NCBI RefSeq assembly: GCF_003018115.1 | Contig: NZ_CP027457.1 | DNA: 64,000 nucleotides | Strand: one strand, 5' to 3' | DNA from: Escherichia coli | GTDB lineage: Bacteria; Pseudomonadota; Gammaproteobacteria; Enterobacterales; Enterobacteriaceae | Shown: positions 13,430 to 52,951 of the stretch, in pieces | How positions within the stretch are numbered: position 1 is the stretch's first letter | How the letters are laid out: each line of letters begins with the position of its first letter | Position numbers and translations under genes: made by a program | Notes under the pieces: model-generated | Database searches by the model: none | Told to the model about the DNA's origin: nothing | What the model saw: only the letters and a program-made list of their open reading frames with translations

Positions 13430-13585
13430 TGGAGGAATTATGAAACACTATCGGGAATCGTCTGAATGGCGGGCACATTTGCGAGCACGCATCCAGTAAT
13501 AACACAGGAAACTATTTTATCTACGCGTTAGCGATAGACTACATACAGGGCGAAAGGAGGTAAGCCGCAGATTTCAGCCGGATGC

Positions 13586-13729
13586 TGAAACGGGAAAGCC
13601 CCTCCCGAGGAAGGGGCCTTAAATAAGGAAAGGGTCATGATGAAGCTACTCATCATCGTGGTGCTCTTAGTGATTAGCTACCCAGCATACTAAGACTACC
13701 AGGGCGGGGGAAACCCCGCTCTACCCTCA
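13586..13729 (-). ncRNA. sibB: Sib antisense sRNA (antitoxin to ibs), copy 1; ends approximate
   Basis: Antisense to the ibs ORF; candidate -35 TTGACA (complement of 13759-13764) and -10 TACTTT (complement of 13736-13741); hairpin 13598-13620 followed by a T-rich run on the minus strand as terminator. Confidence 0.5.
13637..13693 (+). CDS. ibsB: Type I toxin Ibs (18 aa, MMKLLIIVVLLVISYPAY), IbsB-like
   Basis: 19-codon ORF encoding a hydrophobic peptide of the Ibs family; located between mdtA and yegL as ibsA/ibsB are in K-12. Confidence 0.75.
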   Translation: MMKLLIIVVLLVISYPAY

Positions 13730-13913
13730 CTCCTGAAAGTATGCCTTCACGATAAGATTGTCAATCCGCAGGCTTTGCCGTCTGCGATCCTGCCAGCAAA
13801 AATTCTTTGCGAGACGTTACGCAATAATCACACTGGAAACTATTTTATCTGCAAGTCAGCGATAGACTAAGTGCATGGCGAAAGGAGGTAAGCCGACGAT
13901 TTCAGCGGGACGC

Positions 13914-14057
13914 TGAAACGGGAAAGCCCCTCCCGAGGAAGGGGCCTTAAATAAGGAAAGGGTCATGATGAAGCTACTCATCATCGTGGTGCTCTTAGTC
14001 ATAAGCTTCCCCGCTTACTAAGACTACCAGGGCGGGGGAAACCCCGCTCTACCCTCA
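13914..14057 (-). ncRNA. Sib antisense sRNA, copy 2; ends approximate
   Basis: Same promoter/terminator arrangement as copy 1, shifted by one repeat unit. Confidence 0.45.
13965..14021 (+). CDS. ibsB: Type I toxin Ibs (MMKLLIIVVLLVISFPAY), IbsB-like, second copy
   Basis: Same 19-codon ORF, one residue different from copy 1; repeat unit 2. Confidence 0.75.
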   Translation: MMKLLIIVVLLVISFPAY

Positions 14058-14242
14058 CTCCTGAAAGTATGCCTTCACGATAAGATTGTCAATCCGCAGG
14101 CTTTGTAGTCTGCGATCCTGCCAGCAAATATTCTTTGCGAGTCGTTACGCAATAATCACAGAGGAAACTATTTTATTCACGCGTTAGCGATAGACTGCAT
14201 TCAGGGCGAAAGGAGGTAAGCCGATGATTTCAGCGGGACGCT

Positions 14243-14386
14243 GAAACGGGAAAGCCTCTCCCGGAGAAGAGGGCTTTTAATAAGGAAAGGGTTATGATGA
14301 AGCACGTCATCATACTGGTGATACTCTTAGTGATTAGCTTCCAGGCTTACTAAGAACACCAGGGGGAGGGGGAAACCTCTCCCTAA
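14243..14386 (-). ncRNA. sibA: Sib antisense sRNA, copy 3; ends approximate
   Basis: Antisense to the third ibs ORF; flanking hairpin gcctctcccggagaagagggc conserved in position. Confidence 0.4.
14294..14353 (+). CDS. ibsA: Type I toxin Ibs (19 aa, MMKHVIILVILLVISFQAY), IbsA-like
   Basis: 20-codon ORF in the third, more diverged repeat unit; nearest to yegL. Confidence 0.7.
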   Translation: MMKHVIILVILLVISFQAY

Positions 14387-14573
14387 CCCTCACTCCTGAA
14401 ATTATGTCACTCCGCCCTTAGTGTCAATCGACGGCTCTCCGTTCTTGCGAGGCGAATAGCAAAATTTTCTGCGCCGCCGGGCCTAATTCTGAAAGTTTCT
14501 TCGTTTGCTCTTATTTCATTATTGCAGTCGGTATGATACCGGACCTCGATAATTCTCTAAGAAAGGATTTCTT

Positions 14574-15233
14574 ATGAGCGAACAAATCACGTTTGCCACC
14601 AGCGATTTTGCCAGTAACCCGGAACCACGTTGCCCCTGCATTTTGCTGCTGGATGTTTCTGGTTCTATGAACGGTAGACCTATTAATGAACTTAACGCCG
14701 GATTGGTTACCTTTCGTGATGAACTGCTTGCTGATCCGCTGGCTTTAAAAAGAGTGGAACTCGGCATTGTGACGTTCGGCCCGGTGCATGTGGAACAACC
14801 CTTTACCAGCGCCGCTAATTTTTTTCCGCCCATCCTGTTTGCCCAGGGCGATACACCAATGGGTGCGGCCATTACCAAAGCCCTGGATATGGTAGAGGAG
14901 CGGAAACGTGAGTATCGTGCAAATGGTATTTCGTATTATCGCCCGTGGATTTTCCTGATTACCGATGGTGCACCAACCGATGAGTGGCAGGCTGCAGCCA
15001 ACAAAGTGTTTCGGGGGGAAGAAGATAAAAGGTTTGCTTTCTTTTCCATCGGTGTTCAGGGGGCGGATATGAAGACGCTGGCACAAATCAGCGTTCGTCA
15101 GCCTTTGCCTCTGCAAGGATTACAATTCCGTGAACTGTTTAGCTGGTTATCCAGTTCGCTGCGTTCGGTTTCCCGCTCCACGCCGGGAACGGAAGTTGTG
15201 CTGGAAGCGCCAAAAGGCTGGACGTCAGTGTGA
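14574..15233 (+). CDS. yegL: von Willebrand factor A (vWA, TerY-like) domain protein YegL
   Basis: 219 aa; vWA MIDAS-like segment [12 protein letters not shown]; first gene of a three-gene operon with overlapping stops/starts. Confidence 0.85.
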
Positions 15234-20321: not shown

Positions 20322-23300
20322 TCAGTTAATCGCGAAATAACTGCTATTCACCAGCAAATCCAGCGGTTGGGCATCGGCAATCACATCACCATAAATCAGA
20401 TCGACGCCGATGCCAGAAAGCGTATCCATCACTAAGGGTAAAACGACTGGCCCGGCGATGGTTTTCATCCCGAGTCGCTGAGCGTGCCCCTGAATAATCG
20501 TAATCAGCATCTCATCCATCAAATTACCCTGCACGTTGGCGCATAACTCACCATCAAGTAGCAGGTAATCTGCCATATTCGCTTTCAGCGAGTTGAAGAT
20601 TTGCAGATCGCGGCCCACCTGGCTGAGCACTATCCGACATCCCGCCAGCCGCAGTTTTTGCACGCTTTCTGCGTGATCTAAAATCGCTTCAGCCGGAATA
20701 ATCAGGTGTAATAACCGTGGTGGTAGAGGGCTATTTTCCAGCTGCTCAAGCAGATCATTCACCAGCGTGGCGCTACTCAAACCGGCAACGGAAAGGGGGA
20801 GGGCGATGCTTATGCCTTTACTGGCAACCGCTTTTGCGGCCAGCTGGAAAAATTCGTGGAATACCCGTCGGTCAAGAGCATGGCTAAGTGCCGGATCGCT
20901 GAAGCTACGACGAAATTTTTGTTCATCAATAATCTCGCCTTCGCAACTCCAGAGTTTAAGCGAAATCAGCCACAAATTACGCGCTTCCGGGATCCGCGGC
21001 GAAGCGACACCGTGGGCCATCATCATCAACTGATTCTCTTTAATCATCCGCCACTGTTCATCAAGCGACATCGCCGCCCGTTCGCTATGTGCGGCAGCTT
21101 GCTGTGGTTCGTAAACCGTCACCCGGCCCCGTCCACCATTTTTGGAGGCATAACAGGCGATATCAGCCTGCGACATCACTTCTGCCGCCTGATGATTGTT
21201 GTCATCAATCAAGGTAATCCCGGCACTGGCACCTACCCGATGCACACGGCCTTCCCATATAAAGTGATAATCATTCACGGCACTGATAATGCGTGTAGCG
21301 ATAAAACGCGCACTTTCGATATTACAGTCTGGCAACAGTAGACCAAATTCATCACCACCGAGTCGCGCCAGCACGTCGCTGGAGCGCAGCATACTCAGCA
21401 TCAACGACGCCAGTTCGCGCAGCAAAGCGTCGCCCGCCGCATGCCCGGCGCTGTCATTCACCGCTTTAAAGCGATCAAGATCGATAAACACCAGGGCATG
21501 TCGCTGATGTGTACTGTTTACCGTTTGCAGCAGCATACGCAGTTGCTTCTCAAAACTGGCGCGATTGGCGAGATGCGTCAGTGCATCATGGGAGGCGCTG
21601 TAGCTCAGCTGGCGCAGCATTTTGCGTGATTCGGTAACGTCCTGAATCACCAGAACCGAACCAATATTGCTGCCGTCCAGAGTACTTAACGGCGTAATAC
21701 TGTAATGCACGTCGTAGCTGCCGCCGCTCCGGCAGTGCAACACCACATCTTGTTCAATCGCGGAACGTGAGGTGTCGGCACTGTAAATGTTCTCCATCAG
21801 GGGACCATTGTCGCCAAAGGTAATATGCAACACCGTCAGGAGCGGAACACCTAATGCTTCTTCCTGCGTCCAGCCGCTCATCTTCTCCGCCACTGGATTC
21901 ATAAAGGTAATTTTCATTGCCATATCAATACAGACCACGGCTTCGCCGATGGAGTCCAGCGTTATGTGCAGGCGCTCTTTTTCCTGAAACAATGCCTCGT
22001 TAAGCTGTTTAACCTCAGTCATATCCATATTAATGCCGAGCAGGCGTTCGACTTCGCCTTCTTTATTCAGTACCCGGTTGGCGAGGGCGCGGATATGGCG
22101 AATACCGTCTTTTACGGTAATGCGAAATTCCAGTTTAAAGGGCGAGCGTGATTGCAACGAATCACGAATCACTTTTTCGGCATGCTGGCGATCTTCCGGC
22201 AGCACGCACTCGTACCACACCTGCCAGTTCGGTTTGATATGTGGAGGAATTTCATACAGCTCGAACATCCGCTTATCCCAGCTAAAAATATTCGGCTTCA
22301 ACTCCCACTCCCAGATGCCAATCCCGCCCGCTTCGTTAGCCAGCGTGATGCGCTCCATAAGTTGCTGATTCACCTGTTCGGTGCGTTTTAGCTCGTTAAT
22401 GTCTTCAATCTGAGCGATAAAATAGAGCGGCGTGCCATCCGTGTGGCGCACCAGTGAGACGGCAAGCAACGCCCAGACAACATCGCCATTGCGGTTGTAG
22501 TAGCGTTTTTCCATTGAATAGGTGTTTATTTCACCGCTTATCAGCTTTTCAACCTGTTGGAGATCTTTATTGAGATCCTCCGGCCAGGTCAGTTGCTGAA
22601 AGGTGAGTCCGCGCAGCTCTTCCTGACTGTACCCGAGAAACTGGCAGAGCGCTTTGTTGGTTTGCAGCCATTGTCCCTCGGTGCCCACTAACGCCATACC
22701 GATAGCGGAATATTCCATGGCGTTCCGAAAACGGGTTTCGCTTTCGGAAATGTGTTTGCGTTCCGCACGAAAGGCATACATCACCATCGTCATGATGTTG
22801 GCGGGCAGCAGGATCAGCAAAAACGGTAGCCACGGCATATGGCTCATCAGGTATGTACGCGGCGTAGCAAGCAGGGAGGGATCCGCGGCCATCATCAGCG
22901 ACACCATCATCACCGTGGTAAGGAAGATCAAAAAGGCTTCCATTCGTGGCAGGCGCACGGCGCTCCACATCAACAGCACAATAATGAAAGTAAAAGGCCA
23001 CGGCAGATACAGCATCGAAAGCCAGCTTAACGTCAGTGTGATGGCTAACGTGAGCAGCGACTCAAAAAGCAACCGTGGGTTGCGATGGCGCAGCAGATAG
23101 TGTGGTTTAAATAACAATCCCAGCGGCACCAGTGCCAGAGCGCCGATGGATTCTGACAGTACCCATATCAAAAATGCCCTGAGAGGATCGTCTCCGGCCG
23201 TCAGCAGGACAACCAGACCCCCCCCCAACAGAGGCGGAACAATGGCGCTGCCGAGTGCCAGACGCAGCCAGTCAGCCAGATTTTGCAAGGGGTTATACCA

Positions 23301-27198: not shown

Positions 27199-27489
27199 CT
27201 AAGCAGCATGTGGATATTGAATTTCAATACGTTGAATATGTAGTCCTGCATGAGCCATCATGGTGATCAATTTATCGATACTAAAGATCTGGATCTTACC
27301 TCTGGCAAGTTCAGATATGCGAGGTTGAGTGACCCCTAAAGCAGAAGCTGCCTGAGCCTGGCTAAACCCTTGTTGTTCAATCCAGTTATTAATGATCGTT
27401 ACAAGCTCGGCACGGATCCGCATATTTTCCGCTTGTTCAGGGGTGTCACTCACCGCATCCCACACACTATCAAAGGTTTCAATTTTCAT
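27199..27489 (-). CDS. HigA-like HTH (XRE-family) antitoxin
   Basis: About 96 aa; HTH segment FSQAQAASALGVTQPRISELARGK; located downstream of and overlapping the toxin gene (toxin-first order typical of HigBA). Confidence 0.65.
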   Translation of the reverse strand: MKIETFDSVWDAVSDTPEQAENMRIRAELVTIINNWIEQQGFSQAQAASALGVTQPRISELARGKIQIFSIDKLITMMAHAGLHIQRIEIQYPHAA

Positions 27490-27817
27490 TTTTCCGCTCC
27501 TGAACAAGTTCTTTATAGCGTCGTTTGGCTAAATCAATATCCGATTGACTGGTAGTCTGTGTTTTCTTTTGAAAACAATGCAATACGTAAACCGCTTCTT
27601 CAAATTTTGCGACATACATGACGCGATAGATCCCATCAGCATCGCGAGTACGAATCTCTCGCACACCAGGGCCGATAGTTGAAAAAGATTTCCAGTCGTA
27701 TGGGTTTAACCCTTGTTGGATCCTGTCGAGTTGATAGCCAATTTCCTGTCGAGACGATTCTGGAAATGCGCGTAAATCGTCAAGACTGGTATCAAGAAAA
27801 GCCAGCTTTTTTCTCAT
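27479..27817 (-). CDS. HigB-like (RelE/ParE superfamily, phage Gp49-like) toxin
   Basis: 112 aa; GVREIRTRDADGIYRVMYVAKFEEAVYVLHCFQKKTQ fits the Gp49/HigB-type toxin pattern; minus-strand TATAAT (complement of 27834-27839) and AAGGA lie just upstream. Confidence 0.65.
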   Translation of the reverse strand: MRKKLAFLDTSLDDLRAFPESSRQEIGYQLDRIQQGLNPYDWKSFSTIGPGVREIRTRDADGIYRVMYVAKFEEAVYVLHCFQKKTQTTSQSDIDLAKRRYKELVQERKNEN

Positions 27818-27856
27818 TACTCCATCCTTAGATTATACTAAATTTTGTATAAATCA

Positions 27857-27884
27857 AATGCGCAGTTTGAACCTGCGCATTTGA
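27857..27884 (-). terminator. Perfect palindrome downstream of yegH (terminator and/or operator of the HigBA-like promoter)
   Basis: caaatgcgcag ... ctgcgcatttg followed on the minus strand by ATTTATACAAAATTT; sits between the yegH stop and the putative higB -10. Confidence 0.45.
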
Positions 27885-27891
27885 TGTTTTA

Positions 27892-29474
27892 TCACACCTC
27901 GTACTCCATCTCGCCATCCTTACGTAGCGGAATAATCTGCACCTTCTGCACGCGATGGCTTTCCACCTGCAACGTTTTAAGCAGATAATCCCCCACCTGA
28001 ACTTCTTCGCCAGGTTTTGGAATACGCTGTAAATATTCCATCAACAGCCCGGCAATGGTGTGATATTCACGTTTTTCATCCAGCGGCAGCGGCACATATT
28101 GCACCAGATCCTCCAGCGGCATATGACCATTCGCCGTCCAGGAACCGTCCGCATTCTTCTGAATATCATGGCGGGCGTCGATCTCTTCCACTTCGTTCGG
28201 TAAGTTACCGGCAATGGTTTCAGTGACGTCACTTAATGTCACAATCCCTTCCACCGAGCCAAACTCATCCACCACAAAAGCAAAGTGCGTGCGGGCATTA
28301 CGGAACTGCTCCAGGGCAGGTAACAACGGCAAGGTTTCCGGGAACACCAGCGGCTGGCGAATCAACACCCGCAGGTTGAGCGGTTCGCCACGCAGTGACT
28401 GTTGTAGCAGGTCGATAACGTGAACAACACCGAGCAAATCTTCTGCGTCATCACCGTCGGTAACCACCAGCCGCGTATGCTGATTTCGCTCCAGCAACTG
28501 GCGGATCTCGTCTTCCGGCGCGTTGAGATCGATATGCTCAATATCGTGGCGCGACGTCATAATGCTGCTGACAGTACGCTGGTTAAGATTAAGTACCCGC
28601 TCAATCATCCGCCGTTCCTGCGGATTAAAGATCTGCTGGTTACCATGATCCACCAGCATGGACGCGGTTTCGGCGTCCAGTTCCGCATCTTCTTTTTGCC
28701 CGCTAAGCAGGCGCATTACCGCTTCGGTAGTCCGCTGGCGTAGCGTCTGGTTAGCGGAAAGAAAACGTCGCCGGTTAAAGATAGCCAACTGATTGAGCGC
28801 CTCGATCATCACCGAGAAACCAATGGCAGCGTACAGGTAGCCTTTCGGAATGACGAAGCCGAAACCTTCTGCCACCAGGCTAAAGCCAATCATCAACAGG
28901 AAGCTTAAGCAGAGAATAACGATGGTCGGGTGACTGTTAACAAATTGCGTTAACGGCTTGCTGGCCATCAACATCAGGCTGATAGCGATAACCACGGCGG
29001 CCATCATGACCAGTAAATGGTCGACCATCCCGACGGCGGTAATCACTGAGTCGAGTGAGAAGATGGCGTCCAGTACCACAATTTGTGTCACCACCCCCAG
29101 AACTTCGCACCTTTGCGTTGTGTGGGATTATTGCTGTCTTTCCCTTCCAGCCGTTCGTTCAGCTCCATCGTGGCTTTGAACAACAGGAAGAAACCACCAA
29201 ACAGCATGATTAAGTCGCGGGCGCTAAAGGTAAACGAGCGGAAGCTGAACAGCGGTTGCGTCAGGGTGACCAGCCAGGAGATTGACGCCAGCAGTAACAG
29301 GCGCATTAACATCGCCAGCAGCAGCCCGGTAACCCGTGCGCGGTCGCGCTGCTTCGGCGGTAGTTTTTCGGCGAGGATGGCAATAAAGACCAGGTTATCA
29401 ATGCCGAGGACCAGTTCGATCACAATCAGCGTGATTAACCCGGCCCAGATAGACGGATCGGCAATCCATTCCAT
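27892..29474 (-). pseudogene. yegH: yegH (TerC-family membrane protein with CBS/CorC domains), reading frame interrupted near 29088-29096
   Basis: Two adjacent track ORFs (29088..29540 N-terminal TerC part; 27892..29094 C-terminal part, GTG start) together cover one protein remembered as about 527 aa; frames differ by one nucleotide at ...AKFWGW* / (M)VTQIVVLD. Confidence 0.7.
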
Positions 29475-29635
29475 AGTAAGTACAAAACCTATTCGTTGTA
29501 TGACAAATGTCACAATTCGATCATGGATAAATCGGGGCAAAAATGCAATGTTGCAGCACTATTTATCTCATATTATTTGAGGGTAATAACCTCACATTAT
29601 CCCTGAATTAAAAGTGGTAATAATAAAACATTATT

Positions 29636-29649: not shown

Positions 29650-29915
29650 TGTGGAGGCGCAATATTAAATATTGTCAACCTAAAGAAACTCCTAAAAACC
29701 ATATTGAATGACACTTAATATAATTCTTAAAAATAGCCAATTGCCGAATTGTTACCTTGCCTGCTATTCCGTTAGCTGTAACACTTCCTCCTGCATTATT
29801 GGAGAGCCAATATTCAATTACCATAATGTCACCTTATATTCGGAAGTTAATTTCCGCAATAACCCTTTCTCATCAACGATTGTATGCAGAGAGGGTTTGA
29901 AAAATTAAGCTAAAT

Positions 29916-51556: not shown

Positions 51557-52951
51557 ATGCCATTTAAAAAACTCTCCCGACGCACCTTCCTGACGGCAAG
51601 CTCGGCGCTTGCCTTCCTCCATACCCCTTTCGCTCGCGCACTTCCCGCCCGACAAAGCGTTAACATTAACAACTACAACCCTCACGACTGGATCGCCTCA
51701 TTTAAACAAGCCTTCAGCGAAGGGCAAACGGTCGTCGTGCCTGCTGGATTGGTTTGTGACAATATCAACACCGGCATCTTCATTCCTGCAGGTAAAACGT
51801 TACACATCCTTGGAAGCCTGCGCGGCAACGGCAGAGGGCGATTTGTCTTACAGGACGGCAGCCAGGTGACAGGGGGGGAGGGCGGCAGTATGCATAACAT
51901 CACCCTGGATGTGCGCGGGTCTGACTGCACCATTAAAGGGCTGGCGATGAGCGGCTTTGGCCCGGTAACGCAGATTTATATCGGCGGCAAAAACAAACGG
52001 GTCATGCGTAACCTGACCATCGATAACCTGAACGTTAGCCACGCTAATTACGCCATCTTACGCCAGGGATTTCATAACCAGATTATCGGTGCCAACATCA
52101 CCAATTGTAAGTTCAGTGATTTACAGGGGGACGCCATCGAATGGAACGTGGCAATTAACGACAGTAATATTTTGATTTCCGACCATGTCATTGAGCGCAT
52201 CAACTGTACTAACGGAAAAATCAACTGGGGCATCGGCATAGGCCTTGCGGGGAGTACTTATGATAATAACTACCCGGAAGACCAGGCAGTGAAAAACTTT
52301 GTCGTGGCGAATATCACGGGATCGGATTGTCGGCAGTTGATACATGTTGAAAATGGTAAACATTTTGTTATTCGTAATATCAAAGCCCGCAATATCACAC
52401 CGGATTTCAGTAAGAAAGCAGGTATTGATAACGCCACGGTCGCTATTTACGGTTGTGACAATTTCGTGATTGATAATATTGAAATGATTAATAGCGCCGG
52501 GATGTTAATCGGCTATGGGGTAATTAAAGGCAAATATCTCTCGATACCGCAAAATTTCCGAGTGAATAATATTCAACTGGATAATACCCACCTTGCTTAC
52601 AAATTGCGCGGTATCCAAATCTCCGCCGGCAATGCCGTCTCCTTTGTGGCACTGACTAACATTGAGATGAAGCGTGCCTCGCTTGAGCTACACAATAAAC
52701 CGCAACACCTTTTTATGCGAAATATCAAGGTGATGCAGGAATCCTCAGTTGGACCCGCATTGAGCATGAACTTCGACATGCGCAAAGACGTTCGAGGCGT
52801 CTTTATGGCGAAAAAAGAAACACTGCTGTCACTTGCAAATGTTCATGCGGTGAATGAAAAAGGACAAAGCTCCGTCGATATCGACAGGATAAATCACCAT
52901 ATTGTTAATGTGGAAAAGATTAACTTTAGATTGCCGGAACGGAGGGAGTAG
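51557..52951 (+). CDS. wcaM: Colanic acid biosynthesis protein WcaM
   Basis: 464 aa with Tat-like signal ([14 protein letters not shown]); last gene of the cluster. Confidence 0.9.

Follow-up and report, generated by a model that had tools for sequence, protein, structure and literature searches.

A one-base contraction of a G run splits yegH in an Escherichia coli assembly and is probably a consensus error

Poly-G contingency loci in Neisseria, Haemophilus, and Campylobacter undergo phase variation by slipped-strand mispairing. Changes in homopolymer length also arise technically, as the residual errors of long-read assemblies are mainly homopolymer indels, chiefly deletions, which turn genes into apparent pseudogenes (PMC12007338). 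We describe here a contraction of a short G run that interrupts yegH in a 64-kb window of Escherichia coli DNA (contig NZ_CP027457.1), the window being the whole stretch that was analyzed. The intact protein, WP_001296218.1, combines a TerC domain, a CBS pair, and a CorC_HlyC domain and is a paralogue of MgpA/YoaE; it has 527 aa, whereas the window copy is cut after 127. In Salmonella, deleting yegH had no phenotypic effect under the conditions tested (PMC12421838). A literature search for reports of a yegH frameshift or pseudogene found none, and it returned one useful paper, on Salmonella CorC-family proteins.

The interrupted yegH gene

The gene for this TerC-CBS-CorC_HlyC inner-membrane protein lies on the minus strand at 27892..29474 and measures 1,583 nt here versus 1,584 nt in intact alleles. 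The initial annotation had described YegH as split into two abutting ORFs, one ending in ...AKFWGW and a stop and the other opening with VTQIVVLD, and the ORF list agrees with both the description and its coordinates. The N-terminal fragment (29088..29474, minus strand), counted from its annotated start codon, an ATG at 29474, has 128 aa and ends in ...GAKFWGW followed by TGA (29090-29088); taken from its first TTG, this ORF extends over 29088..29540 and has 150 aa. The C-terminal fragment (27892..29094, minus strand) begins GTG-GTG-ACA, giving (M)VTQIVVLD, and has 400 aa from the GTG at 29094 or 399 aa from the GTG at 29091, the two lengths that gene callers of other assemblies give for it. 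The fragments overlap, with the upstream TGA and both GTG codons contained in the string GTGGTGA (29094-29088).

Where the nearest relatives have six consecutive G residues the window has five, and this missing base splits the gene. The run lies at 29094..29098 on the minus strand and reads G5 on the gene strand (C5 on the plus strand), where lineage-mates have G6. The window has TTCTGGGGGTGGTGACACAA at the break and the closest genomes have TTCTGGGGGGTGGTGACACAA, the translation of which matches the intact reading through the break given in the initial annotation. The alignment to reference alleles proposed there, made against SMBL, EC93, and DH5alpha, contains a single gap, of one base relative to SMBL and EC93, both of which have G6, while the K-12-type allele of DH5alpha reads GGGGCG. 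The suspected 1-nt deletion is confirmed by these close relatives as a contraction from G6 to G5, and the RefSeq genomes that share G5 are annotated "frameshifted" rather than as one continuous ORF. Adding one G to the window sequence restores a 527-aa ORF that is 100% identical to WP_001296218.1, the intact YegH of strain MB07081. Relative to intact orthologues the mutation disrupts the frame, as in a true pseudogene, with residue 127 of the 527 the last to be read correctly.

The gene is unambiguously the YegH orthologue. A megablast query of window 27850-29600 (1,751 bases) against 5,426 complete E. coli genomes matched in 5,420, with every match annotated as yegH or TerC family protein and with the best matches spanning 1,752 bases. 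The gene also occupies the orthologous position, in the order asmA, RelE/HTH pair (where present), yegH, and wza that the window shares with relatives having intact alleles. The pair in question, a RelE/ParE-like toxin (Gp49 family, 112 aa) with an HTH antitoxin, lies at 27199-27817 on the minus strand between asmA and yegH and is missing from this position in some strains, such as 0-4 and 504838. By Pfam, an intact YegH relative carries TerC at 14-203, CBS, and CorC_HlyC at 440-516, and all of these domains are represented in the two window fragments taken jointly. It is TerC, the membrane domain, that the break interrupts, at ~100-103 of the 178 profile positions: the N-terminal fragment covers 1-100 of the profile, and the C-terminal fragment covers 103-177 together with the downstream CBS pair and CorC_HlyC.

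Private differences between the window and its lineage-mates

Lineage-mates with the same mosaic structure were found through exact-protein look-ups. Two of them cover window 10322-33638, a span that crosses a mosaic boundary at 29883: GCA_036586225.1, which differs by 2 SNPs, and GCA_900603985.1, which differs by 1. Both have G6 and an intact yegH. Two more, GCA_033630075.1 and GCA_000352925.1, cover 41557-62950 with 1 SNP each, and both have an intact wzy containing a G9 run. A column-by-column tally against the four, over 44.7 kb, gave two differences private to the window, neither of them a substitution. Each of the two is a -1 deletion in a G/C run that breaks a gene, G6 to G5 in yegH and G9 to G8 in wzy; the former is absent from the lineage-mates covering yegH and the latter from those covering wzy. 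A G5 carrier of the same lineage was sought in two further ways. No gap-free yegH match was found by megablast among the 5,426 RefSeq complete genomes, and in the flanking sequence no contig coding for the exact fragment of 400 or 399 aa exceeded 99.5% identity to the window. Both frameshifts are private to this assembly.

The companion break affects the O20/O137-type O-antigen polymerase gene, wzy, at 57071-58296, within the O20/O137-type O-antigen cluster that makes up the last 10 kb of the window. Its G8 run, at 57176..57183 on the plus strand, corresponds to a G9 run encoding Gly36-38 in lineage-mates, and the frameshift leads to a stop at codon 46. All five genomes matching the O-antigen cluster are one base longer than the window at this point, and the run is G9 and the 408-aa Wzy intact in 7 of 7 comparable genomes. 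One G added to the window copy makes its product identical to the Wzy of GCA_033630075.1. The wzy frameshift is probably the same kind of artifact as that of yegH. In a further lineage-mate, CP050207.1, a run of N from 15621 begins exactly inside the wzy poly-G tract (window 57176). The tract thus interrupted that assembly as well, which indicates that such G tracts are technically troublesome.

Elsewhere the window is in good order. Positions 1-25000 are 100% identical, without gaps, to three RefSeq genomes, and over 1-29882 the yegH deletion is the sole difference from MB07081. All 22 genes at 29.6-54 kb are full length and show no gaps relative to EC93. Against its relatives the 64-kb window contains exactly two indels, both -1, both in G/C runs, and both gene breaking. 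The other G/C runs of at least 6 nt are unchanged: the 9-nt run at 23218 (dgcE), the 8-nt run at 58550, the 7-nt run at 51872, and the two 6-nt runs at 15013 and 47111. A/T runs up to 10 nt, those of 8 to 10 nt included, are all the same as in relatives. We rejected the idea of a generally error-ridden assembly on account of the full-length genes at 29.6-54 kb and the otherwise complete identity to MB07081 over 1-29882.

The mosaic boundary is sharp and lies at ~29883, between yegH and wza. To its left the window equals MB07081 apart from the yegH deletion, and to its right it diverges from that strain by 1-3%, matching EC93-type colanic-acid genes and then the O20/O137 O-antigen cluster. It looks like a recombination junction of the kind typical beside cps/rfb. 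Further upstream, at 13478-14406, are two adjacent direct repeats of ~600 bp that are 88% identical; in relatives, the matching segment is annotated as tandem ibs loci for type I toxins, with three Ibs toxins.

The shortened run in public assemblies

RefSeq complete genomes sharing the local context of the yegH run number 1,110 with G6, six with G5, and none with G7, and a search for the +1 allele among 5,025 matching genomes likewise found none. The share of G5 is small, with yegH in frame in ~99.5% of the genomes having the tract. Its six RefSeq carriers are strain 504838 from India, FORC_044, three O157 strains (O157:H7 among them), and E272 from Japan, and a comparison over 3-7 kb revealed no further indel in them. 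In the three carriers examined (504838, Z1767, and E272), PGAP annotates yegH as frameshifted. G5 is found on several different yegH haplotypes, and its occurrence on these and on unrelated backgrounds points to a repeated site-specific process rather than descent.

The exact 128-aa truncated product is more widespread, occurring in at least 1,000 contigs and 1,823 blocks of a public protein index. Eight of these blocks fall in contigs of 50 kb-1 Mb and 72 in contigs of >1 Mb, compared with 791 and 52 for intact DgcE and 102 and 33 for intact WcaM, two proteins of this same region that served as controls. The difference in distribution between truncated YegH and DgcE is large (odds ratio 137, p=2e-63), contig size being a mere proxy for sequencing technology and index blocks not being independent genomes. 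Contigs of <20 kb account for 91% of the truncated-YegH blocks. The G5 allele is almost missing from contigs of the size usual for short-read isolate assemblies and is concentrated in long-read-like, noisy, or fragmentary ones. In many G5 carriers the neighbors wzc, wza, asmA, and dcd are themselves split by deletions at ordinary 4-7-nt homopolymers.

The G-rich string GGGGGGTGGTG in yegH seems generally troublesome. GCA_037633555.1 has lost the T between the G6 run and the following GG at the equivalent of window 29091-29098, leaving a G8 run (TTCTGGGGGGGGTGAC) and also a -1 frameshift. Published genomes nearly identical to the window have private homopolymer frameshifts of their own, from C9 to C10 in dgcE of SMBL and from T7 to T8 in yegP of NCTC11476. 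The yegP change, at the equivalent of window 2007, is annotated as a frameshift and is the sole indel of NCTC11476 in the 25 kb compared. The dgcE run (window 23218-23226, minus strand) encodes Gly-Gly-Gly and is in frame both here and in the three identical genomes; it is C10 and annotated as frameshifted in SMBL and is shortened in several noisy assemblies, making it another recurrent site of length discrepancy.

Origin of the break and comparison with known systems

We consider it likely that the yegH break is an assembly or consensus error and that yegH, together with wzy, is intact in the organism, a technical cause being what the sequence comparisons suggest. Sequencing or polishing would have under-called the G/C homopolymer by one base, recording a true G6 as G5 and splitting an intact gene artificially, and the same process would have turned the G9 run of wzy into G8. 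The initial annotation had left two possibilities, a true pseudogene or a sequencing error. The latter is now favored, because the deletion is private, is accompanied by a second private G-run deletion and by zero private SNPs, and belongs to an allele with a technical-looking distribution; the pseudogene branch is correspondingly less favored. The change has the marks of a homopolymer error in being a single-base difference in run length, private to the assembly, in a comparison where homopolymer indels exceed substitutions. Bacterial mutation-accumulation studies give substitution:indel ratios of 4-23 (PMC6330053), so two indels with zero substitutions are unexpected for real mutation, although this argument would carry less weight in a mismatch repair-deficient background, where indels gather in G/C runs. 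Some observations count against an artifact. The longer G/C and A/T runs are unchanged, whereas a technology blind to homopolymers would strike these first, and G runs are genuine slippage hot spots in a gene whose loss is apparently tolerated.

Less probable, and in our view unlikely without being negligible, is a real and very recent frameshift pseudogene, in which slippage in the G6 run dropped one G in the isolate or in a laboratory stock. YegH would then end after residue 127, midway through its TerC membrane domain, and the change from G9 to G8 in wzy would be a second real slippage, for example in a rough or semi-rough passage variant or in a mismatch repair-deficient mutator background. 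The deletion is, after all, present in the sequence as given, and G/C runs are naturally prone to indels, with a bias toward deletion; in mismatch repair-deficient lines, indels concentrate there (PMC6330053). That the window has no further homopolymer discrepancy, even in its 9-nt G/C and 8-10-nt A/T runs, argues against a sloppy assembly; the six RefSeq complete genomes with G5 are similarly free of other indels in the segments compared, and yegH is apparently dispensable in Salmonella under the conditions tested (PMC12421838). Against a genuine loss, the G5 allele was in none of the four lineage-mates examined and so lacks the inheritance within a clade expected of a true pseudogene, and the tally over 44.7 kb, two private indels to zero private substitutions, fits poorly with the mutational ratios cited above. 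Real slippage should prefer longer runs, yet these are untouched, and real variants should also appear in contigs of 50 kb-1 Mb, where G5 is nearly absent. Moreover, only -1 alleles of yegH were seen and never +1.

It is quite improbable that both G-tract changes are real in another sense, as products of hypermutable tracts in an O20/O137-type E. coli lineage or of a mismatch repair-deficient mutator isolate. The wzy G9 run (Gly36-38) would in that case be a slipped-strand on/off switch for O-antigen polymerization and the yegH G6 run a weaker, recurrent hot spot for loss of function. Were this true, it would amount to surface variation in the style of contingency loci, which has rarely been described in E. 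coli.

The least probable reading is a functional break, whether a phase-variable G-tract switch, a programmed frameshift or transcriptional slippage, or a split gene whose halves, both made through termination-reinitiation at GTGGTGA, reassemble into an active transporter. The overlap of the upstream stop with two GTG codons is suggestive here, as are the Shine-Dalgarno-like AGGTG at 29112-29108 and the recurrence of the same off state in many assemblies. However, the AGGTG motif is 13-16 nt from the GTG codons, beyond the usual spacing, and the break lies within a membrane domain, TerC; the tract has just 6 nt and lacks conservation, being interrupted in K-12-type alleles; and PGAP annotates G5 carriers as pseudogenes. 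A phase-variable contingency locus was rejected, as there is no long conserved tract with expanded and contracted alleles: the +1 allele is missing alongside the six G5 and 1,110 G6 genomes. Programmed ribosomal frameshifting or transcriptional slippage was rejected because orthologues are a single in-frame 527-aa ORF, and the 1,110 genomes with the same context in frame imply that expression needs no frameshifting.

The yegH break is a known kind of event either way, and RefSeq already marks the identical allele as a pseudogene. Its main value is for quality control. At face value, the strain would be scored as being without YegH and unable to polymerize O-antigen for want of Wzy, and both calls are probably wrong. 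The segment at 29094-29098, where the G6 run precedes TGGTG, is a recurrent site of false frameshifts in public E. coli assemblies, and any "yegH pseudogene" reported by a pangenome or pseudogene survey deserves suspicion. If the deletion is real, it represents the ordinary recent loss of a dispensable, uncharacterized transporter.

Set beside the systems with which we began, the locus resembles poly-G contingency loci in having a G tract within the coding region whose change in length switches the frame. Unlike them, yegH has a short tract of 6 nt that the species does not conserve and for which +1 alleles are lacking, and the gene is in frame in nearly all genomes having the tract. A match is also provided by the RefSeq copies of yegH annotated as frameshifted in NZ_CP025856.1 (504838), NZ_CP062733.1 (O157:H7 Z1767), and NZ_CP016755.1 (FORC_044), which share an identical 81 bp, the G5 run, and the same two fragments. 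These carriers nevertheless have other chromosomal backgrounds, with flanks 98.7-99.2% identical to the window, from which it follows that they and the window do not share G5 by descent. As for long-read assemblies, typical uncorrected ones differ from the window, which is far cleaner, with 2 indels in ~55 kb, both in G/C runs, and with longer A/T and G/C runs correct. In kind, though, the yegH break is like the gene-fragmenting errors of long-read or incompletely polished assemblies, a one-base homopolymer deletion that produces an apparent frameshift pseudogene (PMC12007338). As with long-read errors, it is private and is paired with another deletion of this type, and unrelated, often noisy assemblies show it again at the same site.
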